Both the position numbers and the translations under genes were made by a program. The notes beneath the pieces were generated by a model. That model saw nothing but the letters and a program-made list of their open reading frames with translations, did not search any database and was not told the origin of the DNA. Below, in pieces: positions 26,597-46,685 of a stretch of DNA of 64,000 nucleotides; positions within the stretch are counted from its first letter, which is position 1, and each line of letters opens with the position of its first letter. Origin of the DNA: an uncultured bacterium. Lineage in GTDB: Bacteria > SAR324 > NAC60-12. The stretch is taken from contig CAXGMD010000006.1 of assembly GCA_964010765.1 (NCBI GenBank), forward strand, positions 1,481 to 65,480, given 5' to 3'.

Positions 26597-27820
26597 TCAA
26601 GTAGCGCGTTCATCGGAACGCCGAAGCAGGTTAAGCAGGAGAATCATTACGAGACAGACGAAGGTCAATCCTCCAAGCGCTCCCTGAAAGTTCCCGGTCC
26701 ACTCCGACAAGACTCCGAGCCCTAGTGGACCGAGGACCCCACCGATTTCTGCTGCGGCAAAGAACATCCCTCCTGCTGAGCCAGAGTTCTTCGCACCCAC
26801 CTCTGGGATTTCCATCAGTACCAGCAACAGGATCGTCATCATTGATCCCTGTGTGATGCCCTTGAGGATAAGCCCCAGCAGCAGGATCCACTCTGTCGAA
26901 GACTGAAGGCAAAGCGAGGCGGAACCCGCCATTAGAAACAAAGTGGCCAGAATGCGAACCCGATAGGGCGGTGTTGCCTTGCGAGGAATCAGCAGCGCCC
27001 CCAGTACACCAATCATTGTGGGCAGGGAAGCCCAGATTCCGGCTTTCTCTGAACTCAGACCGTGGGTCATCAGGATCTCATGCAACCAGTTACTCAGACC
27101 GTGGTTATAAAGAAAAATGCCGATGCTGATCAGTAAAACATACTGCACAGCACGAATTTGACTTAACTGCAGAAATAGACCCCACTGGGCTGGTCGAGCT
27201 TCTCTTAGACTGTCCTGCTCCAGTTGCCGACTTCCCGGTTCCAGATTAATCACCCACCAGACAACTCCAGACAGCAGCACGAGCACTCCGTAACTGAAAA
27301 GTACGCTGCGCCATTGGTTCTCGAAGAAGGGCATGGCAACGGAGTTCGTTAGCGAGAGGGCAGCAATGGAACCCAATGCCGGTCCTGTTACATACAGACC
27401 CATCGCCAGTCCTTTTTGTGGGCCCTCAAACCAGAGGCTGATCAGCTTTGGAGCACCAATTGAGATCAGTGGACCCCCTAAGCCAAACAGGGCTACTGCG
27501 ACCAGCAGCATCGTATAGTCTTCAGCCTGTGAACGTAACAGCGCAGAGGCCCCCATTAGTAGTGAAGCCATCAGTAGTGAGCGCCGCAGACCAAAGCGAT
27601 CAATCAGCGCACCACACGGTAGAGCAGTGCCAATGTAAATGAGTTGCCAAGCTCCGAGTACACTCCCCATTGCCGCATAACTCATCGAGAGGTCTTCTGT
27701 GATAGGGCGCACCAATGGAGCAAGCGCCGAAACCGTCAGCCCAAAACAGAAATAAATCAACCAAACTCCAAAGAGCATGACCCAGCGATACGTTTGTGAA
27801 GGAATAGCAACGGTGTTCAT
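26597..27820 (-). CDS. MFS transporter
   Basis: 12 predicted TM segments. MFS motif-A-like GLRRSL after TM2. Confidence 0.8.
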   Translation of the reverse strand: MNTVAIPSQTYRWVMLFGVWLIYFCFGLTVSALAPLVRPITEDLSMSYAAMGSVLGAWQLIYIGTALPCGALIDRFGLRRSLLMASLLMGASALLRSQAEDYTMLLVAVALFGLGGPLISIGAPKLISLWFEGPQKGLAMGLYVTGPALGSIAALSLTNSVAMPFFENQWRSVLFSYGVLVLLSGVVWWVINLEPGSRQLEQDSLREARPAQWGLFLQLSQIRAVQYVLLISIGIFLYNHGLSNWLHEILMTHGLSSEKAGIWASLPTMIGVLGALLIPRKATPPYRVRILATLFLMAGSASLCLQSSTEWILLLGLILKGITQGSMMTILLLVLMEIPEVGAKNSGSAGGMFFAAAEIGGVLGPLGLGVLSEWTGNFQGALGGLTFVCLVMILLLNLLRRSDERAT

Positions 27821-29771: not shown

Positions 29772-30042
29772 AATCTACTCCATAGATGATTGAGTGTGGA
29801 TTGGTTACAATCGTAACCTCACCAGTAATGCAGTTCATAGCTCAACTGTAAAGAAATTTCAGTACATAGATTTTTTAGAGTACTCAGATTGATTATTTTT
29901 TGGTGGAACATTTTTACCAGGACATCCAACTAGTAAAAATGAGAATATTGTGAATACTATGAATGTTTTGATCTTCATTTCAGGTTTATATTTATGATCT
30001 AAAAATTTTAGTAAAAATGTTCGATGTAAATCTATCCTTCCA

Positions 30043-30552
30043 TCAATATCTACTGACTTTTCTTCCTTGCTGATAAGCCTCAATAGAGGCTTTTAGATCG
30101 TCATATTCATCACAGCCCAGCCAACATAATTTATCTAATTTCTCTAAATTAGCCTTCGCGAGGTCTAGATTGCCTACTGTCAGGAAGAGTTCTCCTTGAT
30201 ATTCCAGAGCCTCCAAGTGTTTGGGATTGATATCAAGTGCTTTTTCATAGTGAATTGCAGAATTTTTCAGGTCATTCATTTTGCGCAACACGTAACCCAT
30301 ATAATTATGAGCATCCGCGTTTCCTGGATTTTTTTCTAATTCTTTCCTCAATAGTGGAATAGCTGCACTGTAGTCAAATTTCTTTATATAGCTGACAGCT
30401 CGCTGATAATCTCTTGATTTTTGTGATGTAAAGTCATCATCTGAACCACCCGCAGCTTGTAGCATCAGCGGTGAGGCACATGTCATCAGTAGAATGACGA
30501 AGACTAAAGTTGAATGAAATAGAGTTTTATTATTTCCGTTAAAATATGACAT
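30043..30552 (-). CDS. Secreted TPR-repeat protein
   Basis: Signal peptide then three TPR-like units (AHNYMGYVL..., AIHYEKAL..., ALEYQGELF...). Low-GC region. Confidence 0.55.
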   Translation of the reverse strand: MSYFNGNNKTLFHSTLVFVILLMTCASPLMLQAAGGSDDDFTSQKSRDYQRAVSYIKKFDYSAAIPLLRKELEKNPGNADAHNYMGYVLRKMNDLKNSAIHYEKALDINPKHLEALEYQGELFLTVGNLDLAKANLEKLDKLCWLGCDEYDDLKASIEAYQQGRKVSRY

Positions 30553-30723
30553 TTTCTTTCTTTTTTACTATTGAATTTGAAGTGGCAATTATTGTTGAAA
30601 AATTTTCATAGGGGTTAAATGAAAGCCAGTTATAATCTTAGTGCATTTTTTGTTGTGGAGTAAAAGCAACTAGAAGTTCGCTCTCACAGCCCACAACTTG
30701 CTCAGCAACTAGGACATTTCGAG

Positions 30724-30969
30724 TTAGAATAACATCCAGCTAGCAGCGCCCATGAATCCAAAACAGATCAAGCCGACCAAGATGGCAGATCGTTTTGCCA
30801 TTTCCTCAGCGTCATTCAATTCCAAAATGTCTGTCCAATGAACGCCATATGATTTGTGCACACCCTTGTGGGGATTTTTCATGAAATTCTCCAGTTGATT
30901 GCTGTATTGATAATCTGCTGATTGAGGACAATAGTTGGCAGGAACAACCTTTTTCAAGCTCTTTGCCAC
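30724..30969 (-). CDS. Small membrane protein (hypothetical)
   Basis: 81 aa with a single C-terminal TM helix (SAILVGLICFGFMGAASWMLF). Confidence 0.3.
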   Translation of the reverse strand: MAKSLKKVVPANYCPQSADYQYSNQLENFMKNPHKGVHKSYGVHWTDILELNDAEEMAKRSAILVGLICFGFMGAASWMLF

Positions 30970-31847
30970 GTAGTATATAAAATTAAAATACTGAAATTAT
31001 TTATTATTTAATTTTAAGAACAAAAGAAAAGAGATTGTGTGAGAAAATTAGTGAGAAATGCAGGCGTTGATAATGATTTTCTCAGGAAACGATGGATCAG
31101 TAGGTTTGCCAACCAGCTAGCATTCCATCGGTAGCTCTTTCGATGTGTGGCTACAGCAGTTGTTTTTGCCTTCTGTTGCTTTGCAGATAGTGAATAATTT
31201 GGCTTTGCGAACCTGGAGAAATGATTTCCTTGGTCGAATGTTATCGAGCTTGTGGACGAACGGAAGAAAATATTTGGAAAAGAATTGTTTGTTTTTCAGC
31301 TCAGCTGTCACTCATAATTGTAAATCAAGTTTTTACCCATTAATTGACCAATTCTATATCCAAGGAAAATTCATGTTTTCTGAGACAGTCTTTATCAATC
31401 CGAAAATTCGCAAAATAGTCAGTGCAATCGTTGTTTATAGTTCTCTGGCCGCAGCAATTGCGTTCCTTGGGTTTCTGTTGATCTTTTTCGAAAATCCACA
31501 GTGAGATAGATTCCAGCTTGCCAGAGTGATCTTGTTAGAATATCAGAGAGACAGATGCTTCTACTTGACCGAGAGCAGCATCGCCGGTAATTGATCCGGA
31601 AAGATTCTTAAGTGATTACTTGGGTGGAAGTCATTTACAGTGAGGAAATATGAGTGTGATCTGCATTGATGAGATTCTTGAGAAAGATCAGCAGCGTCAG
31701 AAAGCGTTGGAACTAGATGAACTGGAGGAGTTGGACGAGTACGAACTGTGGGATTTGCAGGCTGATGAAATTCTCAACGGCTCTGGCTCGGAGATTCTGT
31801 GTTGAGAACAAGATTTCTACAGATGATGCCTGATTGAGATTGGACTG

Positions 31848-32261
31848 GTGATGTCTCATCGTCTAGCGATTGCTTTGCTCCTCACGCTCACCAATCTTGT
31901 GATTACCATGTCGCTTCAAGCCACTCCACTGAAAGACCATCTTTGGAAAAACCGTGTGATCATTACATTCTCTGCATCGGTGAAGGAACCGGAGCGTCTT
32001 GCACTTCAAAAGCAAATGGAAGAGAAAGCCTGTGCATTTATAGACAGAAATCTTGTGCACATAGATCTGCTTCAAGGGTCAGAGGACTTTGACGAGATGA
32101 GCCAACAATTTGCGGTATCAAGCTCAGGATTTCAGTTACTGCTATTGGGCAAAGATGGTGGGGTAAAGTTAAGATCGAGTACTGCCTCTTTAGAAGATAT
32201 TTTCTCCCTGATCGATACGATGCCAATGAGAAGAAGCGAAATGAGAGATGATCAGTGTTGA
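31848..32261 (+). CDS. DUF4174-family secreted protein
   Basis: Signal peptide, then WKNRVIITFSA...LLLLGKDGGVKLRS...IDTMPMRRSEM matches the DUF4174 signature recalled from memory. Confidence 0.5.
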   Translation: MMSHRLAIALLLTLTNLVITMSLQATPLKDHLWKNRVIITFSASVKEPERLALQKQMEEKACAFIDRNLVHIDLLQGSEDFDEMSQQFAVSSSGFQLLLLGKDGGVKLRSSTASLEDIFSLIDTMPMRRSEMRDDQC

Positions 32262-32610
32262 AGCAGCCCTACATTCAGTAATCTTGGGTTCAGTGAGTCT
32301 TCATTTTTTATTTTTTCGGTTCTTCCACGTTCCTCCATATTGATAGTTTGGATTATTTGGCCGTACAACTTCCAGGCATCCTCTACAGACAAAGACCCAC
32401 TCCTTGCTTGTGGAAACACGCACTCGAAACAGGGTGTTCATTTCTTTGAGACACTGATCACAAGATTTCATGGAAAATATGTGTGCTCAGTCAAGTTCAT
32501 GCATTCACCAAATAAAAACCACCTTCATCGCGTCTCTATACTGAGAATTCACGTTAGAATGTCCTTTTCAAATCAGGAAACATGTAACCTGAGAATTTTG
32601 GAGTAGAACC

Positions 32611-33069
32611 ATGGCTGAAGAATCTACGCTTGATACTGAGGTGAGGCACTTCATATATCAAACCTTCATAAGTGCATTGAGACCACCGACGACAGAAGAA
32701 ACTGCAAAACGATTTCAACTGCCGATTAATAAAATAGAAAGCGCTTTCGAGCGGCTTGCGGCTACACATGATATTGCACTGGCTCCTGGTAGCCACTCGA
32801 TCTGGATGGCTCATCCATTTTCTGCTTTGCCTACCAACTACACGGCCAAAATAGACGGGAAAAAATATTACGGCAATTGAATTTGGGATGTCTTCGGTAT
32901 TGCTGCCATCCTGGGCAAAAATACCGAAGGTCACACTCCGTGCGGGTGTGGAGAGTGTAATGATCATTTGGATTTTTTGATTGGTAAAAACCAGCCAATT
33001 ACCTCCGAATGGGTTGTGCATTTTGTTGTTCCTGCAAGACAGTTCTGGGAAAAAATTGGTTTCACCTGA
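32611..33069 (+). CDS. MerB-family (organomercurial lyase-like) protein with an in-frame UGA at the catalytic-Cys position; candidate selenoprotein (alternative reading: nonsense pseudogene ending at 32880)
   Basis: GGAG 7 nt upstream of the ATG. N-terminal HTH-like segment resembles MerB. ...KIDGKKYYGN-TGA-IWDVFGIAAILG aligns with MerB ...[11 protein letters not shown]96-ALD99TLIFPALIG. The frame stays open to the TGA at 33067. A stem-loop follows the in-frame TGA. Confidence 0.5.
32891..32930 (+). promoter_or_regulatory. Candidate bacterial SECIS hairpin: cttcggtatt / aataccgaag perfect 10-bp stem, 18-nt loop with an inner 4-bp stem, starting 11 nt 3' of the in-frame UGA (32878-80)
   Basis: Inverted repeat verified base-by-base in the sequence. 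The spacing matches the minimal fdhF-type SECIS (upper stem-loop 11 nt downstream of UGA). Confidence 0.45.
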
Positions 33070-35470: not shown

Positions 35471-36475
35471 CTATCCCACAGGATGTTGTTTTCCTGGCCA
35501 TCTATCCCACCATCGTTCAAACAAAGCCAGCTGGCTTGCTGCAAAATCTTTCTGGCTTGGGCTCAGTTCATCAAAGGCATTGAGATGGTGTTGATAGTCA
35601 GCATCGCCCTTGAGAAACAACAGGTATTTGTAATAGAGCACAAGGTCCGGGCCTTCATCAAAGGTGGATAGCGTTTTTAGGGCGTCTTCGAGCTCATACG
35701 CATAGTTTTTTGCTTGGCAATCTCCGCTGAGAGCCATTTGGCAGAGTGCAAACAACTTCAGCACAGGTTGTGGCAGAACGTTGCCAACCCCAGTAATCAA
35801 CCCAATGGCACCACATCGAAGTACTCCGTGGCAAACTTGGGTATCGACCCCAACCAGTAGCTCTAACGCTTCCTCCCCACTGGTGATGTGTTCTGCAGCG
35901 TAACTCAGCGCCTTAGCACCTCCAAACTCCTTGAATCCAACAAGATGCGGGTAATCTTTCCGTAAATCAAAAAACAACTCTGCTTTCGTTTCAAATCCAT
36001 AGTATAGGCTGTTGTAAATCACAGAGGGAAGGTCCACCCCAGCTTCCAAAACCGCAGCCAGATGTGCTCTTTGCGCTGTGGGTGAGGTGCCCCTGGAGAG
36101 TACTCTGGGAATGATCATCAACCCTCTTGCTCCACTTGCCTTTGCATGGACAGCATGAGCAACTGCGTTCTGAGTATTTTGAGCACCGGTTCCCACAATA
36201 ACTGGAAGACCAGCATCGATCAGGGCATTCACTCCGTGGCGACGATGCTCCTCAGAAAGTAACGGCCAGTCGCCCATTGATCCACAGTACACTACTGAAC
36301 TCATTCCTTCTTCCATCAGCTCTTGGCCTTTGCGGACTAGCGCATCAAAATTGGGGATGCCAGATTCGTCGCAGGGAGTCATTAGGGCAGGAATACAACC
36401 ATAAAACGTGTGTGTTGGCTTCATTGCGCTACTCAGTTTATGAATCTGTTTGGGCCATGCTTCGATTTGAGTCAA
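35471..36475 (-). CDS. DapA-family class I aldolase/lyase (paralog of dapA)
   Basis: Schiff-base Lys context GFKEFGG, and TPCDESG...GTGAQNT. Alternative start at 36424 (MKPTHTF). Confidence 0.7.
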   Translation of the reverse strand: MTQIEAWPKQIHKLSSAMKPTHTFYGCIPALMTPCDESGIPNFDALVRKGQELMEEGMSSVVYCGSMGDWPLLSEEHRRHGVNALIDAGLPVIVGTGAQNTQNAVAHAVHAKASGARGLMIIPRVLSRGTSPTAQRAHLAAVLEAGVDLPSVIYNSLYYGFETKAELFFDLRKDYPHLVGFKEFGGAKALSYAAEHITSGEEALELLVGVDTQVCHGVLRCGAIGLITGVGNVLPQPVLKLFALCQMALSGDCQAKNYAYELEDALKTLSTFDEGPDLVLYYKYLLFLKGDADYQHHLNAFDELSPSQKDFAASQLALFERWWDRWPGKQHPVG

Positions 36476-36714
36476 CAGATTTGGATCTGCTTAGTTCAAA
36501 TCAGGCAATTAGGTTTAATTTTAGGAATATTGTCTGTTCAGCTAATGAAGAGAATACTTACCGGAACAGAATCCATTGGTCCAGCCTCCAGACTTTGCTT
36601 GCTACTTCATTATCTACTGAATGATACTTTCGACGCTTTTTCTAATTTTTTGGGCTTGGTATTTTATTCTGCTGAGGCCGGTAATTTTAAAAATTTCTAT
36701 GATTAAGGTTAGTA

Positions 36715-37029
36715 ATGCCAACACTGTTTTATTTTGAAGCCAAATTGAAAATAGGTAAGGAAGAACGATTTCTTCAATTCGTAAACGGCCCTAAAGGCTT
36801 TGCAATCACCAAATCAAAGCCGGGTTTCATTTCGGCAGAAGTTGGACTATCGAAAGATGGTGTGGGTCAAACCACTTTCCACCTGTGGGAGAAATGGGAA
36901 AAGCTGGAAGACTTTGAAAATTATGGCCAAGACCCAGAGCGCTTGCCTGGTGCAGAGTTTGAGGAAATTTTTGCAGATTGTATTGATGGTGTTCCTCGAG
37001 AGATTTTCCCAGAAATCATGGAAGTCTAG
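36715..37029 (+). CDS. Small ABM/Dabb-like alpha+beta-barrel protein (hypothetical)
   Basis: 104 aa. ...FISAEVGLSKDGVGQTTFHLWEKWEKLEDFENY resembles antibiotic-biosynthesis-monooxygenase-type proteins. Weak. Confidence 0.35.
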   Translation: MPTLFYFEAKLKIGKEERFLQFVNGPKGFAITKSKPGFISAEVGLSKDGVGQTTFHLWEKWEKLEDFENYGQDPERLPGAEFEEIFADCIDGVPREIFPEIMEV

Positions 37030-37144
37030 AGTCTCACCCCCATGCAAGAATTCCTATTGCTCATGGAACTACCAACTATCTCTTGCTTAGTAACTGCTAA
37101 TGCACTCGGGATCTAGTCAGCTAAATATCAGTTCTATCATACCA

Positions 37145-37197
37145 GTTCGTTGGTGGATCAAATTTGCCGAAGAATACTTCAGCTACAAAAATTATTG
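37145..37197. repeat. Repeat copy A (~53 bp, ~83% identical to copy B at 42926). Begins with ttggtgga, resembling the tmRNA 3' end core
   Basis: gttcgttggtggatcaaatttgccgaagaatacttcagctacaaaaattatt vs ggtttgttggtggatcaaatttgatcgagaatgattcagctacaataattgtt. Confidence 0.6.
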
Positions 37198-37343
37198 GCT
37201 ATCATTCTTGAAAGCAATCTCTCATTACCTGCGGAAGATAGATGAAAAATTATAATTGAAGAATGACCCGGAGTACTCAGTACAAAAGTTGTTTCAAATA
37301 ATGAATTTATCCTTGATGAACCCAAGTAAAGAAAGAAGGGATT

Positions 37344-39047
37344 ATGATTTTTAATAGACTGTTCTCTAGCTTGGTCTTTGTTGCTTTCTTGTGGAATCCG
37401 GCATTTGCCCAAAGCTCCAAGAAAGCGCTCAAGTACATGGTAGCTACTGCAAATCCAGTGGCTTCCCAAGTTGGCTACGATATTCTAAGCAGGGGAGGCA
37501 ATGCGATTGACGCCATGGTTGGTGTTCAACTCATGCTGAATCTTGTGGAACCACAGAGTTCTGGGATTGGTGGTGGTGCTTTCTTGTTGTTTTATGATGC
37601 CAAACGGAAGGAAGTTACCAGTTTTGACGGTAGGGAAACAGCACCACTCAAGGCAAAGGGAGACTTGTTTCTCAAAGAGGATGGCGGCCCTCTGAAATTT
37701 TTTGAAGGTGTTGTAGGGGGTCGCTCTGTTGGAACACCAGGAACATTGAAACTCCTAGAAGTCACCCATAAAAACTTTGGTTCTCTCCCTTGGCGAGAGT
37801 TGATGCAACCGACAATTAAACTTGCTGAAGAGGGCTTCAGGGTTTCCAAAAGGCTAGCGGCATCGGTGGAGAGGGATGCAAAACGTTTGAAAACTTTCCC
37901 AGCAACAAAATCATATTTCTTCCTAGACAGTGATACGCCAGTTCCCGAGGGAACTTTGTTGCGTAATCCAGATTTCGCCAAAACATTGCGCCTGATTGCC
38001 GCAGAGGGTAGCGACCCATTTTACTATGGTGAAATTGCGAGGGACATTGTTCGTACTGTTCAAGAAGCAAAGGGTAACCCAGGCAAACTATCACTCGCTG
38101 ATTTAAGAAATTATTGGGTTATTGAGAGACAACCAATTTGCCATGACTACAAGCAGTATCAAATTTGTGGAATGGGACCACCCTCTTCAGGAGCACTTAC
38201 CATTGGACAAATGTTGGGGATGCTAAGTCACTTCAATTTGCGAGACCTGTCTCCAAACGGATTGAACTTCACCCATCTTTTTGCAGAGGCCAACCAACTG
38301 GCATTTAAAGATCGAGGTCTTTACATGGCGGATAGTGACTATGTAGACATGCCAACTGAAGGTTTGCTTGATCCGGAATATTTAGAGATGCGGTCCAAGT
38401 TGATCGATCCGAGTAAAGCCTCCGGTAATCTGTCTGCTGGCTCACCGCCGAAAGCTTTGAGTTATCAACTTAGTCCTGACATGTCGCTAGAATTCCCCTC
38501 TACGAGTCACTTTGCAATTGTAGATGCTCAAGGCAACGCTGTCAGTATGACGACCACTATTGAAAACGGCTTTGGCTCTCGCCTGATGACCAGGGGATTT
38601 TTGCTCAACAACGAATTAACCGATTTCTCTTTCCGACCGGAACAGAATGGTCGCTTGATTGCCAATCGACTTGAACCCGGGAAGCGTCCTCGCTCTTCGA
38701 TGTCTCCTACACTTGTGTTCAACGCAAAAGGTGAGTTACACATGGCTGTTGGCTCACCTGGCGGTAGTCGGATCATTCCATACGTTGCAAAAACTCTGTT
38801 GGGGGTACTTGAATGGAACATGGATATACAGGACGCGATTAATCTGCCGAACCTAGCCAAAAATTTTGGTACCCTAGACTTGGAAGCAGAAACCCCTGCA
38901 GAGCAACTGAAAGCAGAGTTGGAACAACGGGGACACAAAGTTAGTGTGCGTTCACTCACGAGCGGAATTCAGGGGATTGTTGTCTCATCAGGTGGACTGG
39001 TTGGTGGGGCAGATCCACGTAGAGAAGGATTGGTTCTGGGTGAATAG
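37344..39047 (+). CDS. ggt: Gamma-glutamyltranspeptidase
   Basis: Signal peptide. Autoprocessing Thr context and ...TSHFAIVDAQGNAVSMTTTIENGFGS (GGT catalytic region). Confidence 0.85.
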   Translation: MIFNRLFSSLVFVAFLWNPAFAQSSKKALKYMVATANPVASQVGYDILSRGGNAIDAMVGVQLMLNLVEPQSSGIGGGAFLLFYDAKRKEVTSFDGRETAPLKAKGDLFLKEDGGPLKFFEGVVGGRSVGTPGTLKLLEVTHKNFGSLPWRELMQPTIKLAEEGFRVSKRLAASVERDAKRLKTFPATKSYFFLDSDTPVPEGTLLRNPDFAKTLRLIAAEGSDPFYYGEIARDIVRTVQEAKGNPGKLSLADLRNYWVIERQPICHDYKQYQICGMGPPSSGALTIGQMLGMLSHFNLRDLSPNGLNFTHLFAEANQLAFKDRGLYMADSDYVDMPTEGLLDPEYLEMRSKLIDPSKASGNLSAGSPPKALSYQLSPDMSLEFPSTSHFAIVDAQGNAVSMTTTIENGFGSRLMTRGFLLNNELTDFSFRPEQNGRLIANRLEPGKRPRSSMSPTLVFNAKGELHMAVGSPGGSRIIPYVAKTLLGVLEWNMDIQDAINLPNLAKNFGTLDLEAETPAEQLKAELEQRGHKVSVRSLTSGIQGIVVSSGGLVGGADPRREGLVLGE

Positions 39048-39460
39048 GTTTCATAAATTGTAAGAGACGCCACTCATCCTGAGTTCGTTGGTAGGTCGTT
39101 AAATTTATCAAGACGATCCTCCAAAGTAGTCTGATTACTTTCTTGCGAACGCATAGTTTGTCTTTACACTATCTACTGAATGATATATTTTTATCTTATT
39201 CATTTTTTTTCAATTTGGTGATTCTGCGCATCTTGTATAGCAATTTTGCCAAAATTTTTGGCTAGTTTCCTGAAGTTATATGTTTAAACTGGCCAATTCA
39301 ATTTTTTGCTAACAGATTGCTTGTGTTTTAATTACCTTCTGGTTGATATTTGGGCTCTCTGCCCAAATTACTTGGGCCTGATGCCGCAGTGTCCGACTCA
39401 TGTGAGTTGTGATCTCACACTGTGCAACGCAACGCTAAATCTGATTATCTAGAGGACCAA

Positions 39461-39892
39461 ATGCTGAGAAAATTGATTTTTGCCTGTCTTATCATGGCGC
39501 TGTTATCTGCTACACCTATCTTTGGGGGTAGTCATTCAAATGAGAAAAAACCGCAGTTCATGTGGATCCGTACTTATGAATTGAAACCTGGGGTGAGTTC
39601 AGTAGAGGCTGAAAAGGTTGCAAGAGGTGTAATGGATTTTGTCAATAACAAACTCCTCCAAGGGAATGGTATTCTTACCATGCTTGTTCCAGTAGCGGGG
39701 CCGTCAAACAAATTTAGCTTCTTTTACATTTCTGACAGTATTGATGACAGAATTATAGGTAGAAGTAGACTGGTAAAGCTTGAGGGGTTTCAACCTCATT
39801 TCAAGGCTATGATGAATATTGTTGAAAGCGCTGACGATCAGTGGTTCATGCTTCCATCACAAGATGTTATTTGGTCTCCTTCTAGTGAATAG
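39461..39892 (+). CDS. Hypothetical secreted protein
   Basis: AGAGGA RBS then ATG 39461. Signal peptide MLRKLIFACLIMALLSATPIFG. Confidence 0.4.
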   Translation: MLRKLIFACLIMALLSATPIFGGSHSNEKKPQFMWIRTYELKPGVSSVEAEKVARGVMDFVNNKLLQGNGILTMLVPVAGPSNKFSFFYISDSIDDRIIGRSRLVKLEGFQPHFKAMMNIVESADDQWFMLPSQDVIWSPSSE

Positions 39893-39913
39893 CGTGTACT
39901 AGTTAACCACCTT

Positions 39914-39936
39914 GGGACCCAATCAAATTGGGTCCC
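39914..39936 (+). terminator. Hairpin gggacccaa-tcaaa-ttgggtccc downstream of the 39461 gene (no clear U-tract)
   Basis: 9-bp perfect inverted repeat, 20 nt after the stop. Confidence 0.35.
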
Positions 39937-40117
39937 GCTGATCCTCTGTGTTAAAATGATGGTTGGTTTAGATCAACTAATTTTTCTAATTGACATATTC
40001 TTATATTTTCAATTTTTTGGCCTTAAATTAAAAAAGAATTTCAGCTAAATTGCTTTGAAAAAAGAATGATCTGCCAACGTGACGAAATGAAATACTAATT
40101 CTAGTTTGAGATGAACA

Positions 40118-40381
40118 ATGAAAGTAATGATGCAAGTGGAATGTAGAGACTGGGATCACTGGAAAAAAGCCTACGATGCTCACGCTCCTGTAAGAGTTGG
40201 ATTTCAACAGGACATCTTTGTAGGTCATGAAGCAGAAAATCCAAACAATGTAGTGTTGATTGTTGAAATTCCTTCTATGGAAGCAATGCAGGAGTTTATG
40301 CAGCGCCCTGATAATGCAAAGGCAATCGCTGATTCAGGAGTGAATGTAGAGAGTATCAAAGTAACTCCTCTTGCAGACTAA
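40118..40381 (+). CDS. Small protein, paralog A of an 87-aa family (see 42050)
   Basis: MKVMMQVECRDWDHWKKAYDAH...MEAMQEF...VTPLAD. Shares a pattern with the ORF at 42050 (M..M.I.C.DW.KA.DA...VG.....MEAM..P....VTP). Confidence 0.5.
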   Translation: MKVMMQVECRDWDHWKKAYDAHAPVRVGFQQDIFVGHEAENPNNVVLIVEIPSMEAMQEFMQRPDNAKAIADSGVNVESIKVTPLAD

Positions 40382-40434
40382 AGAGTCACTACTAAAAACA
40401 GAAATTTTCTCATTTAATCACTGAGGAAAATAGC

Positions 40435-41295
40435 ATGAAAAAGTTTTTCATTGCTCTAGTTAGCATAGTCGTAATTTTATTCGTTGCTGTTGGAGGTGCA
40501 CATTTTTATGGATTACAGAATTTGAGTGCATATCAACTCGATCGATTTACAACAGTAAAAGCTAGTGAATATTCGGTTGCCCTTGAGAGAGGGAAGCATT
40601 TAGCAACCATTAGTGGGTGCAACGGTTGTCATGGGGCAAATTTTCAAGGGAAAGATTTTATAAACGGGGCACCTATTGGATATGTCCCGGCTCCTAATCT
40701 CACCCCTGCTGGACCTGTCGCAAATTATACAGATGAAGATTGGGTGAAGGCTATTCGGCATGGCATAGCGAAAGATGGTAGGGTAATGGTGATTATGCCC
40801 TCAAACCATTATTCGGCCTATGGTGATGATGATCTCGCTGCACTCATTTCTTACATGAAAACATTACCACCCGCTGAAAATAAATTTGGCTCACGAGAAA
40901 TTCAATTTCCTGGATCAATTATTTTTGGAATTCTTGCTTATGATTCATGGCCCGCAAATCAAATTCCTCATGATGAAGTTGGTGGAAAAATAGCACCGAT
41001 TATTGATGAGTCCCTTGAATATGGTCAATATTTGACAAGAATTACAGGGTGTTACGAATGTCATGGAGGGAACTTGGCAGGAAAAGATCCAGACTCCGAA
41101 GGTTCACCTGGTCCGAACATCACTAGAAAAGGCAATCCTGGCAATTGGAATTTCGGGGAATTCAAGAAAGCTATGCAAACTGGTCAAACACCAGAAGGTA
41201 AGACATTAAATCCAGAAAAAATGCCTTGGCCTCATTATGCAGTGATGTCTGATATAGAATTGCGATCGCTGTGGTTGAGTTTAAATTCAATCTAA
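40435..41295 (+). CDS. Membrane-anchored diheme c-type cytochrome
   Basis: N-terminal TM helix. Two heme motifs CNGCHGANFQGKD and CYECHGGNLAGKD, each followed by a candidate Met ligand region. Confidence 0.7.
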   Translation: MKKFFIALVSIVVILFVAVGGAHFYGLQNLSAYQLDRFTTVKASEYSVALERGKHLATISGCNGCHGANFQGKDFINGAPIGYVPAPNLTPAGPVANYTDEDWVKAIRHGIAKDGRVMVIMPSNHYSAYGDDDLAALISYMKTLPPAENKFGSREIQFPGSIIFGILAYDSWPANQIPHDEVGGKIAPIIDESLEYGQYLTRITGCYECHGGNLAGKDPDSEGSPGPNITRKGNPGNWNFGEFKKAMQTGQTPEGKTLNPEKMPWPHYAVMSDIELRSLWLSLNSI

Positions 41296-41540
41296 ATTTA
41301 ACTAACTAACCGGTGACTCAATGTCTTAGCTGGTAAATTAGTTGTGCAATCCTTCAATCTAAGCTTGCAATCTCAATCATGGAGGCCTTCTACCAGATCA
41401 CTAACTCCACACATTATTGATAATTTTTCTTGCTTTTTGGCTACCTTCCAGTCGATTTTTTGTGAGTCAAACTCAAGCTTTCAGTTACGACTGTTTGTGT
41501 CTAAGCTAATTTTTCAAATTTAATTTTCTAAGGCATCACA

Positions 41541-41948
41541 ATGAAAAAGTTTCTAGCCGTTCTTGCCGCTGCAATCATCAATACTCCTGTGTTATTTGCA
41601 GGAGCGCATGTCAATATCCCAATTGATCATCTTGTGGACGGAATGCCTGTTATTTTTATGGTCACCGGGCAAAAGATCACCCCACAGCAACACTCTGAAT
41701 TCAAGACAGCTGTTGACGAATGGTATGCATCAGACTGCTTCATGTCTCAGCAGCACTCAGTTGATATCGTAGTCGATGCTGATGGATCCGTTACCCACGT
41801 TGTACGATGGGCCACTAAGGAAGCATTTCTACGTGATCAAGGAATTCAGTGTGAAGCATTTGAGTCTATGTTTGGCAAGATTGCTCAGATTGGTGGTGCT
41901 GATCTGAAAATGTCTGCAACCACATCGATTGCACCTTCACCGAGATAA
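41541..41948 (+). CDS. Hypothetical secreted protein
   Basis: Signal peptide MKKFLAVLAAAIINTPVLFAGA. 135 aa. Confidence 0.4.
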   Translation: MKKFLAVLAAAIINTPVLFAGAHVNIPIDHLVDGMPVIFMVTGQKITPQQHSEFKTAVDEWYASDCFMSQQHSVDIVVDADGSVTHVVRWATKEAFLRDQGIQCEAFESMFGKIAQIGGADLKMSATTSIAPSPR

Positions 41949-42049
41949 TTTTATTCAGAATCCTATCTGCTTTTTGTTAGCCATAGACCGACAGCTCAAA
42001 TTGGTCAAATGACACTCGCCCTAAAAGTTTTAAATTCAAGGACTCACAA

Positions 42050-42316
42050 ATGCTCAATACAATGGTGATCATAAAAATGGGTAATTGCACTTTTGATGAT
42101 TGGAAAAAGGCTTTTGATGCTGACTCCGAAACCGATGCTCAATTCATGAAGGATATCATTGTCGGCAAAGTGGATGAACATACTGCAATTGTCAGTGCGG
42201 ATGTGTTTGCTCCAGAAAAAATGGAAGCAATGATGTCCGATCCAGAATTTCAAAAAATTGAGGCTGAAATGGGTTTGAAGCACACTGTCTATCAGGTAAC
42301 CCCAGCCTCAGCTTAA
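42050..42316 (+). CDS. Small protein, paralog B of the 87-aa family
   Basis: MLNTMVIIKMGNCTFDDWKKAFDAD...MEAMMSDPEF...VYQVTPASA. See 40118. Confidence 0.5.
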   Translation: MLNTMVIIKMGNCTFDDWKKAFDADSETDAQFMKDIIVGKVDEHTAIVSADVFAPEKMEAMMSDPEFQKIEAEMGLKHTVYQVTPASA

Positions 42317-42396
42317 GAAGTGTCTTCCCAAGCGTGCCATGTCAGGACACTAAATTTACCTTGAGTATGTTTTCACACCCCTACATTGGAGACCTC

Positions 42397-42837
42397 ATGA
42401 AAGCTTACAAACTTGTAACTACACTAGTATTTTCACTTGTGATATCTGCTTTTGCTTTTGCTTCTGAACCGATACCTGACACAGGTTGGGGGGCAGTTCT
42501 AAAAGTTCCAGTAGCAGAAGTTGAACGAGTGGAGCAAGGCTTGATCGAGTGGTCAAATTGGATAAGGGATACTCATCCTATGGGTAAAGAAGAAAATGGT
42601 TTAGAAAGCCTGACCATTACGAAGAGTTATGCATCTGAAAATCACGTTTTCTACGTTATTGTGGAGCGTTACCGAGATAATGCTGGATTAAAAAATCATC
42701 AGCAACTTTTCCAGAGAGACGTAAGAGGTGCTTATGCAAATATGTTCGCCAAACTCTCTTTCTTCCGGCAGTACAGAATAGCGGGCTCGGAACAGAATCA
42801 GACTCTGTACAGTCTGATTCCATCTGTAGGAAAATAA
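42397..42837 (+). CDS. Secreted ABM-like protein (hypothetical)
   Basis: Start chosen at MKAYKLVTTLVFSLVISAFAFA (signal peptide). VFYVIVERYRDNAGLKNHQQLF resembles the ABM monooxygenase fold. Confidence 0.35.
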   Translation: MKAYKLVTTLVFSLVISAFAFASEPIPDTGWGAVLKVPVAEVERVEQGLIEWSNWIRDTHPMGKEENGLESLTITKSYASENHVFYVIVERYRDNAGLKNHQQLFQRDVRGAYANMFAKLSFFRQYRIAGSEQNQTLYSLIPSVGK

Positions 42838-42925
42838 ACAGTTTCAGTTAGAACTTCTCCCAAGCTAATGACAACTGTTGGTGTTATTTGAAGCCTATCC
42901 GGCCAAATAACAGCCCTAATATATC

Positions 42926-42978
42926 GGTTTGTTGGTGGATCAAATTTGATCGAGAATGATTCAGCTACAATAATTGTT
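42926..42978. repeat. Repeat copy B (pairs with copy A at 37145)
   Basis: See copy A. 40/48 identical positions in the ungapped core alignment. Confidence 0.6.
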
Positions 42979-43078
42979 AACGGGAATGTTTGAACGTAAT
43001 ACCTAGTAATTGTTGCAGATCTATTGATTGGCGGTGGAGGATACTTCGGAATTGTGGATATCCTGAACTTTTTTTAAT

Positions 43079-43107
43079 TGGTGGAGGTGGTAACACTTGA
43101 ACTTTGT
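43079..43107. repeat. Degenerate copy of the tmRNA 3' end (att-site relic): tggtggaggtggtaacacttgaactttgt vs tmRNA end tggtggaggtggcgagagtcgaactcgcg
   Basis: 12/12 identical core then 9/17, 21/29 total. Same orientation as the ssrA 3' end at 46127, about 3 kb away. Confidence 0.55.
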
Positions 43108-43201
43108 AGTATGCTCGGAATTACAAGGTTTTTTGAAGACTCGTGTCGCTGTTGAAAATCATTCTCGACTTCACAGTCTAGGGATAAAGGAGAATTTGCT
43201 C

Positions 43202-44095
43202 TCAGATATCTAGCGTGCCTTCTGCTACTTGGATGCAATTCCCACCAATCCAAGTGGTGGTTACCACACCATTTTGCTTGCTTGCCCGGGCTCTCAGTTC
43301 ACTTGGTCTACCCATTTCAACTCCCTGGGCAATCCTCCAACCATAATCTCTGTCCACCCCGTCATCCAGGTGAGCGAGTAATCCAGCTAAGGCGCAATTG
43401 GCACTTCCGGTTGCAGGATCTTCGGTCACCCCATCCAACGGAGCGAACATCCGAGTTCGCAGATCAAATTCATCCTCAGAGCGCACATAGAGATGCGTCA
43501 TCGCTACACCCTGCGCCTGGAGTACTGGAAAAGCGTCTAGATTTGGCCTCGCTTTCTCTAGTGCCTCTCGATCCTTCAATTCGACCATCAAGAAAGGCAG
43601 ACCCACAGAGGCAAGCTGTGGTCTGTGTCTATCCGCACGAATCGCTGAGCTTGGAAGATTCAGCGCTTGGCTGACCGATTCCAAGCTGATCTCCGCTCCA
43701 AGCGAGAGGGGCGTGGGAGCCTGTAGTTCAAAGAAGGGATGACCGTCATTCGGATTCGTTATGGTGACTGGGACCAAACCAGCCTTTTCCTCAAAGACAA
43801 CCTGCAGCGGAGGCTGGGCATCCCCAAGATATCCGTTGTGATAGAGCGTGAAGGCAGTGCCCAGATTGGGGTGACCTGCAAACGGTACTTCCGAGGTAGG
43901 CGTGAAGATCCTCACTTGTTTGGTCTGGCCTTGTTCAGGAGGAAGGACAAAAGTCGTTTCGGAGAAATTGAATTCACGGGCGATCTGCTGCATTTGTTCA
44001 TCGTTCAGACCACTGGCTTCCGGAACGACTGCGAGCTGATTCCCTTGAAAAGCTTGTTTGGTGAAGACGTCACAGATAAAGAATTGATAGGTCAT
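43202..44095 (-). CDS. PhzF-family isomerase (phenazine biosynthesis-like protein)
   Basis: [12 protein letters not shown]...GNQLAVV N-terminal PhzF signature. ORF extends to 44134; start chosen at MTYQFF. Confidence 0.7.
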
Positions 44096-44275
44096 CAAAG
44101 GAACAGGTCTTTCAGTAACAGGAAGCTTTGGCACCCGTCAGCTGCCAGCAGGATTCAACGTATTTTGAGTGAGCGCAATGAGAGCTTTACATCGATAGAT
44201 CTCAAGTAGCAGAGACGACTCAGTTGGACCAAACGGCGCAATTACACCATCTCCCATTTGTCTCTGCTTCTCTCC

Positions 44276-45175
44276 TTACACAGGAATGGCGGTGCCAGCG
44301 GCATTTCTGGCAACATAATTTTGTGGAACTCCCGGAAATATTTCTTTAAATAGGCTCAACATGTTCATCGTAGAACGTCGATCCGAGCTTAAATGCAAAT
44401 GCCCAGGAGACCCTAGCGTGGGGGGCAGCGCAAATCCGTGAGGGGTCCCTGAGTGATCATGAAAATTCCAATCAACTCCAGCCTCATTCATTTCAGCATA
44501 GAATCTTTCCTTGCTTTCATTTGTCACTAGATAATCAGCTGCACCGTTCTCAATCAAAACGACGGCTTTTGTGTTGTAATGGTTTTCACATAATTTCAGC
44601 GGTGGTATTGCGGCACCATATTTTGCTGCATTCGGATCCTCTCCGGTTTGCAACAGACCATGGAAAGAAACCACTCCCCCAACATCCAAGCCACCTCGGA
44701 TACACTCCAGCACCGCCATTCCCCCAAAACAGTAGCCGATCGCAGCTGGGGCAAACGCTTTGTCAACAAAAGGACTCTCCAAGCCTTTTTCCAACCAAAT
44801 CTTCAGCAAAGCTCTGAATTTTTCATGATCGTGATCCAGGGAAACGAGACCCTCAAAACACCGCTTCCTGAAAGCGGGCATAAGCTGCTCATCTTCTGGA
44901 CATAATCTTTGATCAGGTGGCACGAGATCCCCATAAAGATCTGCCGCTAGTCCAACATACCCCAATTTTGCCAGGTACTCCGCAACATCCAGTTCGAAGA
45001 ACTTGAGTCCTTGAAAGTTGTGAAAAATCAACACGAGTGGGCGTGGACCTTGTTCCGCACTCGGCGCCACAAGATATCCTTTGTAGTTGTTGTCTCTGAA
45101 AGAAAAATTGATTTCTGATCTTCGGAGATCCGAACCACTGGGGGAATTTTCTTTTGATTGATTCATGGCTACCAA
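44276..45175 (-). CDS. Dienelactone-hydrolase-family alpha/beta hydrolase
   Basis: IGYCFGGMAVLE nucleophile elbow (Cys nucleophile, as in DLH) ... SFHG ... HGF. Confidence 0.65.
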   Translation of the reverse strand: MVAMNQSKENSPSGSDLRRSEINFSFRDNNYKGYLVAPSAEQGPRPLVLIFHNFQGLKFFELDVAEYLAKLGYVGLAADLYGDLVPPDQRLCPEDEQLMPAFRKRCFEGLVSLDHDHEKFRALLKIWLEKGLESPFVDKAFAPAAIGYCFGGMAVLECIRGGLDVGGVVSFHGLLQTGEDPNAAKYGAAIPPLKLCENHYNTKAVVLIENGAADYLVTNESKERFYAEMNEAGVDWNFHDHSGTPHGFALPPTLGSPGHLHLSSDRRSTMNMLSLFKEIFPGVPQNYVARNAAGTAIPV

Positions 45176-45203
45176 CCGGAAATTGTTGTTGATTGATGAT
45201 GGT

Positions 45204-45824
45204 TCAAACCAAGATTTTCTTGGCTGTTACGACATACAAAGGATCAAAGTTGCTGTTTTCACGGACAAGCTGCTCAGACTGAATTTCACGAAACCCTCCC
45301 GCCTTCTCAAAGTACCAGGAAACGAGTCGACAGTGATCCTCGCCGCTAAACATTCTCCAAGCCAGGATTGCTTTGGTTGGGAACATCCTGTTTGAAAAAC
45401 TCACACAACAGGTCCCATTCGGCTTCAAGACTCTGTAAATCTCTCTAAAGACCGGTACCGGAGAGGTTAAGTATTGAACTGATACGGCAATCGTACAAAG
45501 GTCAAATTCTTCATCACCATATGGCAACTGCTGCTCCGTGTTTAGGTTCTGAATATGGAAATCAGTGAGCTGCGTATTGTTTTGCAGTTCAATTTGATTC
45601 ATTCCATGACCCGAAACCCTAGAGTAGTGCTTGTGATCAGGCAGGTGCGAAACCCAGCTCGACATCAAATCGAGCACGGCATCGCCATCTTTCAGTAACT
45701 GATCATAGTAGTTTCTCAGAACTTGACAGGCATTTTCGTCAATGTGTTTAACTAGCCGTGGGCTCGCATAAAAAAGACGGTCATCATTGGAGTCTTCCTT
45801 GGTAAACAACTGTTCTGGAATCAT
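45204..45824 (-). CDS. Class I SAM-dependent methyltransferase
   Basis: VLDLMSSWVSHLPD (motif I-like) and a Methyltransf_11-type layout. 206 aa. Confidence 0.65.
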   Translation of the reverse strand: MIPEQLFTKEDSNDDRLFYASPRLVKHIDENACQVLRNYYDQLLKDGDAVLDLMSSWVSHLPDHKHYSRVSGHGMNQIELQNNTQLTDFHIQNLNTEQQLPYGDEEFDLCTIAVSVQYLTSPVPVFREIYRVLKPNGTCCVSFSNRMFPTKAILAWRMFSGEDHCRLVSWYFEKAGGFREIQSEQLVRENSNFDPLYVVTAKKILV

Positions 45825-46126
45825 CTGTTATCCTGAAGAAAAGGTCAGCTCGTCCAGGTGGCAAATCGTGATGAAGCAGGTAGGACAGAAGACTGATTCG
45901 ATGCAGCGCAGATGTCAACTGGTTGATGAGCGGGATTTGCTGAATATCCAATCTGACGATCCAGAGACGGATTCATTTAGAAGACGGATGTTGTGGGTGT
46001 CACGATAGGTGCCACTCAGCCAGTTTGTATGGACGGACTAAAGTGAATTTGACTGGAGGAAAAACCGAGGAATCGTTGGTTGTTTCAGGGAAGAAGAGGA
46101 AGAAGTTGTGATTAAATTCGAAAAAA

Positions 46127-46496
46127 TGGTGGAGGTGGCGAGAGTCGAACTCGCGTCCTGATATGCTTTCCCACGAAGCGCTACAAGCTTAGTCGAAACT
46201 TGTCGTTTTCACAGTCGGTGTCGGCAATCGACCGCCTCACGACTGTACACTTCCAGTTGATCTCATCTGACCGTCAGAAGCCCAGTCAGACCAGCCCAAG
46301 TAAAGGGTTACACCTCAACGGAGGCCCTCGGGCCTACCTCCGCGAGACGCCTACTCAGGCAGCGATTGCTGCGTGAGCCGGAGCGTAGTCGCTGTTGTTT
46401 GCAGCTATAATTTTGATGACCGTATTTACGTGGACGTTCATCACCCACGGCTTGCTCTCAGTGAGTTCCACACCCAGTCGAATACCGGGACACCCC
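46127..46496 (-). ncRNA. ssrA: tmRNA (SsrA), one-piece. Predicted tag ANNSDYAPAHAAIAA (resume codon GCA, stop UGA at 46355-57)
   Basis: Reverse complement begins GGGGGUGUCCCGGUAUUCGACUGGG. It contains GACUAAGCUUGUAG and ends GGACGCGAGUUCGACUCUCGCCACCUCCACCA. These match the E. coli tmRNA landmarks GGGGCUGAUUCUGGAUUCGACGGG, GACUAAGCAUGUAG and the T-arm plus CCA. Acceptor stem has a G3:U wobble. Confidence 0.8.
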
Positions 46497-46685
46497 CACA
46501 ACAGACCTTTTAGACTAGCAGCTTTGTGGATTTGTGCCACTGAAATCATTCAGCTTGTGCGGAAGGGAACCGTCCTTGTTCCTTGGTCAGCACTGGAGTG
46601 AACCTCGGCTCGAGTGGTGTTGTGCAGGTCACTTTGGGGCCTTGGTGTTCCCAACAGAGCACCACGACTTGTGTAGCAATCGGGG

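Follow-up and report, generated by a model that had tools for sequence, protein, structure and literature searches.

A gene trio beside ssrA in an uncultured marine bacterium as a probable degraded remnant of a tyrosine-integrase island

What does a short copy of the tmRNA 3′ end, separated by three genes from a complete tmRNA gene, tell us about the origin of those genes? In the 64,000-nt stretch of DNA analysed here (the window), which comes from an uncultured marine bacterium, the tmRNA 3′ end CCACCTCCACCA appears on the + strand as its reverse complement, the 12-mer TGGTGGAGGTGG. Exactly two copies of this 12-mer are present, one at 46127 and one at 43079; they share a strand and are separated by 3048 nt. 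ARAGORN, the Rfam model RF00023 and a 12-mer search of the window bore out the recurrence at 43079, in the same orientation, that a sequence-only reading had noticed. The tmRNA itself scored 173.2 bits with the RF00023 covariance model, against a gathering score of 47, and covered model positions 1-374, the full model. Its tag peptide as given by ARAGORN, ANNSDYAPAHAAIAA followed by a stop, is kept in all relatives and looks canonical in form, and ssrA is identical in about 20 related contigs. One boundary of the candidate island is thus formed by an intact target gene, namely the complete tmRNA (Table 1).

Table 1. Coordinates, strands and identifying evidence of the features at the ssrA locus, from the tmRNA gene to the distal repeat
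Feature	Position in window	Strand	Evidence or remark
tmRNA gene (ssrA), intact, one-piece	46127..46497	-	ARAGORN and Rfam RF00023
Proximal att core (attL)	46123..46154	-	identity block duplicated by islands: GCGAGTTCGACTCTCGCCACCTCCACCA + TTTT
Minimal common block of proximal att core	46123-46151	-	AGTTCGACTCTCGCCACCTCCACCATTTT
Decayed left (integrase-side, P′) arm	45967..46122	-	MAFFT alignment and nhmmer profile
Integrase pseudogene stub, last ~37 codons	45847..45966	+	IVMKQVGQKTDSMQRRCQLVDERDLLNIQSDDPE; RRY catalytic tyrosine changed to C
Class I SAM-dependent methyltransferase	45204..45824	-	Pfam PF08241 and related families; dN/dS 0.09 vs L001
Dienelactone-hydrolase-family protein	44276..45070, upstream alternative starts up to 45175	-	Pfam PF01738; dN/dS 0.08
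PhzF-family isomerase	43202..44095 (/44134)	-	Pfam PF02567, TIGR00654; dN/dS 0.13
Decayed right (P) arm	43108..43191	-	one degenerate arm repeat CGACACGAG at 43140-43148
Decayed distal att core (attR*)	43079..43107	-	CAAAGTTCAAGTGTTACCACCTCCACCA; 12/12 then 8/17 identical to tmRNA 3′ end

The similarity between the two sites had been counted as 12/12 followed by 9/17; the run of 12 stands, and a recount of the remainder gives 8/17. Decay in the distal core is uneven, with 8 changes in 17 nt and none in the adjoining 12, which speaks against the island reading. At the 29-nt level, an unrelated site at 35066 (+) matches as well as the distal one (20/29), which at 33 or 40 nt is not the top match in the window; the exact 12-nt run is the only unusual aspect of the repeat. 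By our estimate, the terminal 12-mer, if pre-specified, is expected about 0.004 times per strand per window; when every 12-mer from the final 45 nt is allowed and both strands are counted, the expectation is about 0.26. No further or longer copies of the tmRNA 3′ end were found in the window with up to 3 mismatches allowed. The repeat is real, weak by itself, and convincing only alongside the comparative evidence; placed in that setting, it is a displaced 3′ fragment of the target standing as a direct repeat at the other boundary, decayed and in register with a homologous P arm. Among viral contigs, the 25-mer att gave three matches that were set aside as tmRNA 3′ ends of other organisms (two of them two-piece genes, tag ANDTVYALAA), and the decayed att version gave no match.

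The comparative evidence begins with close relatives, in which the ssrA 3′ flank, proposed earlier as the place to look, was found occupied: same-species contigs all carry the relic, and some carry newer islands in addition. ssrA is a live integration site in near-identical strains. Contigs about 99.9% identical to the window have other islands inserted precisely at the ssrA 3′ end and bounded by a perfect repeat of 25-29 nt. A polymorphic 11-kb island present in some strains encodes a sugar-binding protein and ABC transporter, Dak1/Dak2, PfkB, RpiB and TIM; other strains have an integrase-bearing island of about 12 kb. All such islands are positioned between ssrA and the methyltransferase gene, and perfect second copies of the proximal core adjoin that gene in L081, L085 and L086 (25+4 nt) and in L109 and L118 (28 nt). 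The relatives all come from metagenome contigs, and an assembly artefact at some junctions is possible in principle; the junctions that matter most, however, recur across independent assemblies. Among the contigs examined, none showed the 3-kb unit in circular or excised form.

These elements constitute a previously undescribed island family targeting ssrA in an abundant uncultured marine lineage, which we defined by a tyrosine integrase of 389-390 aa (PF00589) together with arm repeats of the type GGACACGT; the repeats are putative arm sites of the integrase. Intact relatives (L096, L134 and L141) carry, next to tDNA, the integrase, a repressor-like regulator, two excisionase-like HTH_17 proteins and a D5_N/DUF5906 primase. 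The family is marked by recognisable repeats in its arms, by a conserved right end linked to PhzF and by metabolic cargo.

The 300-nt spacer between ssrA and the methyltransferase gene is homologous to the left ends of the integrase-bearing islands. A MAFFT alignment of the window with the left ends of L134, L135, L141, L096, L099 and L100 reveals the 3′ end of the integrase gene and decayed arm repeats, the degenerate copies at 45993-46013 reading GGCACCTATCGTGACACCCAC here against GGACACGTATATGGACACGTG in intact islands. An nhmmer profile made from integrase-bearing islands only, with the window excluded, matches 45867-46030 (E=7.7e-16), and in a local tblastn search the integrases of L096, L134 and L141 match the window at 62-63% identity over 35-37 aa (E ~1e-11 to 1e-12). 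The stub has the location and orientation expected of the island integrase. The family's left end, namely att, then an arm bearing GGACACGT repeats, then the 3′ end of the integrase gene, is thus present. It had been stated that the bracketed 3 kb holds no integrase; this is right for an intact gene and wrong in the strict sense, given the C-terminal stub of about 37 codons. A Pfam search of 26-50 kb found no intact integrase, so that the intact target has no complete tyrosine integrase beside it and the element, reduced to its stub, qualifies just as a degraded member of the tDNA islands. A 407-aa ORF at 26597-27820 was considered as an integrase and ruled out, being an MFS transporter.

At the other end, the roughly 100 nt after PhzF are homologous to the P arm of the islands, including arms without PhzF linkage. 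PhzF, an arm of about 100 nt and the att core form a conserved right end in more than 10 independent contigs; PhzF, or a 3′ fragment of it, lies directly before the P arm in L109/L133, L121, L122, L123, L125, L128, L132, L142, L136 and L119. Globally aligned with the spacer of the L109 island, the right arm of the window scores 14, and shuffled sequences score -26.7 +/- 8.7, with 0 of 1000 attaining 14. In shuffle tests of sub-regions, the observed score was reached by 0/2000 shuffles for L121, 1/2000 for L109, 3/2000 for L137 and 36/2000 for L124. An nhmmer right-end profile aligns over its full length with 43079-43191, though at a marginal level (E=0.021), and the relic escaped a second, more diverse profile; the case for the right end is therefore built on the narrower profile together with the shuffle tests and the register. 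As to the latter, the distal core lies 99 nt past the PhzF stop, against 103 nt in the L109 island copy, and 21 nt from a conserved AAT..GAG element, the same spacing as in intact islands. The right end of the family, that is, (PhzF), an arm with GGACACGT repeats and an att core about 33 nt further on, is thus found in the window as well.

The proposal that the two sites are attL and attR of an island in the ssrA 3′ end, and the trio its degraded remnant, is therefore supported by the living islands, by both arm homologies and by the register, and also by the recurrence of the trio with arm and decayed att in the diverged lineage L136/L119. We conclude that 43079-46126 is probably a fixed, degraded island of a tyrosine-integrase family that targets the ssrA 3′ end, from the T-loop to CCA. 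It reads in the order attL, decayed P′ arm, integrase stub, methyltransferase, hydrolase, PhzF, decayed P arm and decayed attR. The homologies, the layout of the parts, the polymorphism in the population and the selective constraint on the trio are directly observed; from them we infer an order of events and a presumed single island as the source of both ends. An island consisting of left (P′) arm, int, further genes, methyltransferase, hydrolase, PhzF and right (P) arm would have recombined with ssrA, the attP copy of the tmRNA 3′ end restoring the gene and the displaced original 3′ end becoming the distal repeat. An internal deletion would then have taken away whatever other genes the island had and all of the integrase but its final ~37 codons. 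Point mutations would have accumulated by drift in both arms and in the distal core, and selection would have kept the three cargo genes, vertically inherited since before the split of the sister lineages. The tmRNA gene is intact and still targeted, newer islands entering between ssrA and the relic in the present population.

Pfam agrees with the initial identification of the bracketed genes as PhzF, dienelactone hydrolase and SAM methyltransferase, all on the - strand; gene calls for the hydrolase in related contigs are 264 or 296 aa long. Measured against L001, the trio has dN/dS of 0.08-0.13 and dS of 0.23-0.33, and the neighbouring core genes speE, speD and a GTPase have dN/dS of 0.05-0.12 and dS of 0.13-0.26. 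The trio is under purifying selection (dN/dS ~0.1), of an age equal to that of its flanks and older than a species split. The GC content of the relic is not atypical (0.476 vs 0.485 for the window), and a promoter and terminator scan of 42.7-46.6 kb gave nothing exceeding shuffle expectation. Taken as an island remnant, the locus is a clear case of domestication, in which three cargo genes survived their vehicle and now evolve like core genes. In annotation, an island origin should be noted for the methyltransferase-hydrolase-PhzF trio, and the ssrA of this lineage should be labelled a variable hot spot.

Occurrence of the trio beside ssrA without a repeat had been named as an observation that would speak against integration. 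Formally, this arrangement exists in L001, L118 and L125, and the trio stands without the distal core in the sister lineages L001, L118, L120 and L125; the sister lineages lack the next 6.6 kb too. We read it instead as secondary: L118 retains the decayed arm up to the exact T-loop position, which is best explained by a later loss of the core together with the adjoining 6.6 kb. The DNA just beyond the distal repeat, from window position 43078 on the - strand, is ATTAAAAAAAGTTCAGG; no genome was found in the predicted pre-insertion state, with ssrA running straight into this DNA. Synteny has disappeared in more distant relatives, and in L002 (speE 73% identical) it stops at speE, with no tmRNA. 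Methyltransferase homologues in L101, L102 and L104 (66-75% identity), considered as guides to the ancestral state, were uninformative, having no tmRNA nearby. Homologues of the 146-aa gene, the first past the distal repeat, were searched for an ssrA-flank junction and lie in variable regions (L143-L147) with no ssrA or family ends. A short conserved element at about 36.49 kb, upstream of a DHDPS-family gene at 35471-36475, was considered as a second decayed att, which would make the 6.6-kb segment an island; it could not be substantiated, with about 50% similarity and a position 12 nt out of register in L118.

The two ends may also have different sources. The left relic (P′ arm and integrase stub) and the right relic (trio, P arm and attR*) could stem from two successive ssrA islands, of which a deletion took the younger right part, the intervening att and the older left part. 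Tandem junctions are indeed known in the family, since one strand of L124 has a right arm, an att and a shortened left arm side by side. Moreover, the diverged lineage L136/L119 has methyltransferase, hydrolase, (a hypothetical gene) and PhzF, then the arm, a decayed att and a further left-end relic; an island directly abuts the relic in L109/L125; and the DNA before the methyltransferase gene in L136 is unrelated to the window spacer, the ribosome-binding-site region excepted. However, such a collapse of a tandem array takes one event more than a single island with an internal deletion, and the window bears no mark of a second junction. We regard it as unlikely, and it would lead to the same final arrangement and to the same conclusion of a degraded island remnant at ssrA.

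Two further explanations would deprive the trio of its att brackets. The 12-mer might be part of the adjoining low-GC segment of 6.6 kb (36478-43078; GC 0.414, atypical), which would then be an insertion carrying a tmRNA-like end of its own. L118 is without exactly TCAAGTGTTACCACCTCCACCA and the 6.6 kb, with a clean junction starting in the T-loop-like part, and a perfect 12 nt beside a heavily mismatched 17 nt fits a hybrid site. But this is quite improbable: the decayed P arm and a 22-nt tmRNA-like piece keep precisely the 21-nt spacing of intact islands, which would be a coincidence if the two were unrelated, the segment has no left- or right-end homology inside it or at its far end, and its two junctions are without the common core needed for conservative site-specific recombination. 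It is hardly credible that the 12-mer is a chance intergenic match and the trio an ordinary chromosomal neighbour of ssrA. A random site equals the total similarity of 20/29, the trio is conserved beside ssrA across a species-level split with core-like evolution, and the islands of other strains enter between ssrA and the trio, which thus behaves as chromosomal flank; yet chance accounts neither for the homology to arm and integrase that is present upstream of the methyltransferase gene (E=7.7e-16), nor for that to the P arm past PhzF, nor for the recurrent PhzF-arm-att architecture of active islands. More generally, a weak 12-nt repeat can be validated or rejected in this way, the decision being made by profiling both arms of a living family and not by the repeat.

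Sublocations within tDNA were reportedly worked out by Williams in 2002-2003. The degraded island resembles tDNA islands in having an intact target at one end and, at the other, a direct repeat made of the displaced 3′ fragment, in the integrase beside the intact target and reading towards it, and in an identity block from the T-arm through CCA. It differs from typical ones in that only ~37 codons of integrase are left, the distal repeat is 12/12 + 8/17, and the element is fixed and common to sister species. P4-like and PICI-like integrative satellites combine an integrase, an AlpA/Xis-like HTH protein and a primase-helicase. L096, L134 and L141, with integrase, regulator, HTH_17 proteins and primase beside tDNA, resemble them in gene content; no capsid-redirecting or packaging genes were identified in the family, and the window holds a relic only.

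The Islander database is built on the concept of tyrosine-integrase genomic islands in tRNA and tmRNA genes (PMC4383910). With its integrase stub, decayed repeat and fixation, the relic would probably be missed by a search of this type, which needs an integrase and a good repeat. The pattern agrees with published ssrA island arrays (PMC3146451, PMC4383910). In Dehalococcoides, ssrA is a hot spot with several tandem islands, insertion in the T-loop and metabolic cargo, and islands without an integration module were interpreted as cis-mobilizable or fixed (PMC3146451). The hot spot, tandem islands, T-loop insertion and metabolic cargo are common to both; Dehalococcoides, however, uses a serine recombinase (DsiB) and a six-gene integration module, whereas the family described here, from an uncultured marine bacterium recorded as Deltaproteobacteria/Pseudomonadota, has a PF00589 tyrosine integrase, excisionase-like HTH_17 proteins and a D5_N primase. 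Integration at ssrA, tandem arrays and integrase-less remnants are all textbook matter, and the mechanism is thus not new.

Cis-mobilizable elements (CIMEs) and their accretion with an incoming integrative element have been reviewed (PMC5704250). Like a CIME, the relic has att-derived flanking repeats, no working integrase, and newer integrase-bearing islands adjoining at the same att. However, the definition of a CIME needs functional att sites, mobilized by an integrase acting in cis or in trans, and the distal core of the window is without T-arm sequence and its arm repeats are degenerate; judged by these losses, mobilization of the relic at present appears unlikely. Accretion in the past is a different matter: PhzF fragments at the right ends of islands would be expected if a composite was once excised. 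It is conceivable, though doubtful, that the relic or its ancestor joined in such an event, an incoming integrase-bearing island having excised with the trio via the distal att and seeded the islands with a PhzF(-stub)-P arm-att end, a lineage that would then have spread among host lineages and switched its target to the 3′ end of another tmRNA (L122/L132) and to that of a tRNA (L137/L140). If this is true, the PhzF-arm junction would be a marker by which cis-mobilization and target switching could be traced in uncultured marine bacteria.

The 15-residue tmRNA tag ANNSDYAPAHAAIAA, as predicted by ARAGORN, has a hydrophobic-Ala-Ala end (AIAA) like canonical tags and is invariant across all related contigs, including L001, a relative about 93% identical to the window. 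A 64-aa ORF at 46355-46549 (- strand), called as a gene by some pipelines, is an artefact that ends in the tag frame. On the + strand the tmRNA 3' end reads TGGTGGAGGTGGCGAGAGTCGAACTCGCG. As the sequence-only reading had claimed, its first 12 nt recur exactly and in the same orientation, with a single extra copy in the window, at 43079 and 3048 nt apart; the 9 of 17 matches reported past the 12-mer became 8 of 17 on recount. Decay of this core is uneven (8 changes in 17 nt against 0 in 12). The unrelated site 35066 also attains 20/29 similarity in the window, and at 33 or 40 nt 43079 is no longer the best match. What stands out is solely the perfect match over the terminal 12 nt, and the repeat taken alone is not strong evidence for an attachment site (att).

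Features at the ssrA locus of the window and of related metagenome contigs
Feature	Position	Strand	Contigs	Remarks
tmRNA (ssrA), one-piece, intact	46127-46497	-	window	ARAGORN and Rfam agree
Integrase stub IVMKQVGQKTDSMQRRCQLVDERDLLN	45847-45966	+	window	62-63% identity to last ~37 integrase residues
SAM methyltransferase (MT)	45204-45824	-	window	
Dienelactone hydrolase	44276-45070	-	window	
PhzF	43202-44095	-	window	
Distal core (attR)	43079-43107		window	copy of tmRNA 3' end
Low-GC (0.414) segment, 6.6 kb	36478-43078		window	gamma-glutamyltranspeptidase, cytochrome c, several small proteins without Pfam match
~11-kb island	between ssrA and MT		L081, L085, L086, L100	sugar-binding protein, ABC transporter, Dak1/Dak2, PfkB, RpiB, TIM
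389-390-aa PF00589 integrase module	directly after ssrA		L096, L099, L134, L135, L141	integrase toward ssrA; repressor-like, two excisionase-like HTH_17, D5_N primase
Right ends of integrase-type islands	adjoining MT		L109, L118, L123, L125	28-nt copy GCGAGTTCGACTCTCGCCACCTCCACCA

The source is an abundant uncultured marine bacterium, and look-ups with exact proteins retrieved about 20 contigs that match the window at roughly 99.9% identity. Most of them have the window layout; three other states occur at the gap between ssrA and MT (Table). A perfect copy of AGTTCGACTCTCGCCACCTCCACCATTTT adjoins MT in the 11-kb-island group. Going by the stretch that the young islands duplicate, the true att identity block is 25-29 nt long and starts in the T-arm. 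Relative to these islands, the trio of MT, hydrolase and PhzF acts as chromosomal flank. About one in four of the contigs that are otherwise 99.9% identical carries the 11-kb element (L100 2652-~13620 of its contig; L081 1-9674), with ssrA on one side and a perfect 29-nt repeat on the other. This element encodes a sugar-binding protein, two permeases, two ABC ATPases, Dak1, Dak2, PfkB, RpiB and TIM, has no recognisable right arm, and in L100 contains a ~49-codon integrase stub similar to that of the window. Integrase-less and polymorphic in the population, it represents a young metabolic island.

Alignment showed the 300-nt spacer between ssrA and MT to be homologous along its entire length to the DNA that follows ssrA in integrase-bearing islands. 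The integrase gene is recognisable in this alignment by its 3' end, with the RRY tyrosine changed to cysteine in the window, and GGCACCTATCGTGACACCCAC at 45993-46013 is a degenerate form of the direct-repeat motif GGACACGTATATGGACACGTG. A profile made solely from integrase-bearing islands matched 45867-46030 (E=7.7e-16), with no other window match under E=0.03. These homologies mark the ssrA-side border of the 3-kb interval as the left end of an island. The earlier statement that an integrase is lacking thus holds for an intact gene, none being found within or near 43079-46127, and fails for the C-terminal stub of ~37 residues. A 73-aa ORF at 45787-46008 (+ strand), which contains this stub, is an artefact.

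At the other side, the island end in L109 consists of a 3' PhzF copy (86% nucleotide identity), a 103-nt spacer and a 28-nt att; in the window, the corresponding parts are PhzF, a spacer of 99 nt and the copy at 43079. Global alignment of the two spacers scored 14, a value reached by 0 of 1000 shuffles (-26.7 +/- 8.7), and a metagenome scan for the spacer motif GGAMACGTATATGGMCACGTG yielded 22 loci. These loci show the spacer to be the conserved right (P) arm of the island family. This arm precedes the ssrA att in L121, L123, L124, L125, L128, L129, L133 and L142, and in most of the loci it is abutted by PhzF or merely by its last 40-75 codons. The window spacer is homologous even to arms without PhzF, and its score was reached by few shuffles (out of 2000: 0 for L121, 1 for L109, 3 for L137, 36 for L124). 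The motif GGAMACGTATATGGMCACGTG is also present on the left arm, between att and the integrase stop (L126-L141). Moreover, the 43079 core lies 21 nt past a conserved AAT..GAG element, the same spacing as in intact islands. A right-end profile aligned 43079-43191 over its full length (E=0.021). A more diverse right-end profile gave no match there, so that this end is less secure than the left one.

The homology of both ends to active islands supports the earlier view of a degraded island, and the interval reads as a member of a family that is still active at ssrA. The order within 43079-46126 is attL (ssrA), a decayed left (integrase-side, P') arm, the integrase stub, MT, hydrolase, PhzF, a decayed right (P) arm and a decayed attR. 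The two ends may derive either from one island or from a collapsed tandem pair. The adjacent 6.6-kb segment is present in all same-species contigs and missing in the sister lineages L001, L118, L120 and L125, and the distal core is likewise absent from the sister lineages. The segment could have been inserted in the window or deleted in the relatives. Since core and arm keep their register in the window, the absence of core and segment is read as a loss in the sister lineages, and deletion seems the preferable explanation from these comparisons. Among the relatives examined, none had the 6.6-kb segment immediately next to ssrA. In L118, the decayed arm continues up to ...ACTACAGAGT and is followed by a clean junction to DNA beyond the window's 6.6 kb; this breakpoint falls exactly where the decayed att core resembles the T-loop, a hint that an integrase might have been involved.

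The identities proposed for the three genes (PhzF-family isomerase, dienelactone-hydrolase-family protein, class I SAM methyltransferase) were confirmed. Compared with L001, their dN/dS is 0.08-0.13 at dS 0.23-0.33, and that of the neighbouring core genes 0.05-0.12 at dS 0.13-0.26. Because the trio and the left-end relic are common to the window, L001, L118 and L125, insertion and integrase loss are older than the split from these lineages, and the trio is therefore domesticated island cargo. In the diverged lineage L119/L136, the series MT-hydrolase-(hypothetical)-PhzF is followed by the arm, a decayed att (20/28) and another left-end relic. The decayed att of L119 (6880-6910), L136 and L138 has kept its T-arm, with CACCTCCACCA turned into TATTTTCATCA by five C-to-T changes; this decay is opposite to that of the window, where the T-arm is altered and the acceptor part perfect.

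The relic adds a further case to known ssrA-island remnants; the mechanism is already known and is standard biology of islands in tRNA/tmRNA genes (PMC4383910). A close parallel is provided by the tandem ssrA islands of Dehalococcoides, with a 20-bp repeat, T-loop insertion and metabolic cargo, whose integrase-less units have been discussed as cis-mobilizable or fixed (PMC3146451); their recombinase is a serine enzyme, whereas that of the present family is a tyrosine recombinase. The relic also resembles a CIME (PMC5704250), except that its distal att looks non-functional. That active islands carry PhzF stubs at their right ends would be compatible with accretion in the past.

An intact island type of ~12 kb is suggested by L096 and L142, whose overlap of 3.4 kb is 96% identical. 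The reconstruction (L096 6932-16372 plus L142 3903-10075) reads integrase, repressor-like gene, two excisionase-like HTH_17 genes, D5_N/DUF5906 primase, three large family-less proteins (405, 427 and ~1000 aa), PhzF 3' stub, right arm and att. At the same ssrA, integrases of two subtypes that are ~66% identical occur (L096 vs L134/L135/L141). In L124 (1851-2121) and L102 (1237-1564, - strand), right arm, att and left arm are adjacent on one strand, the left arm of L124 being truncated ahead of the integrase; the arrangement represents an excised element's attP or else a tandem-island junction. A second low-GC stretch (0.37-0.42) at 30000-33000, with a TPR protein gene and ORFs that match no Pfam family, is shared with L001 at ~91% identity, and two profile searches for island ends gave no match in it. 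Finally, the GGACACGT-repeat right arm abuts another tmRNA-like 3' end, GGTCAGGAGTTCGATCCTCCTTGCCTCCACCA, in L122 (1458-1540) and L132, and to a tRNA 3' end, GGRGAGTTCAAGTCTCCCCTCTGCTACCA, in L137 (5338-5420) and L140, junctions which suggest a switch of target specificity within the island family.
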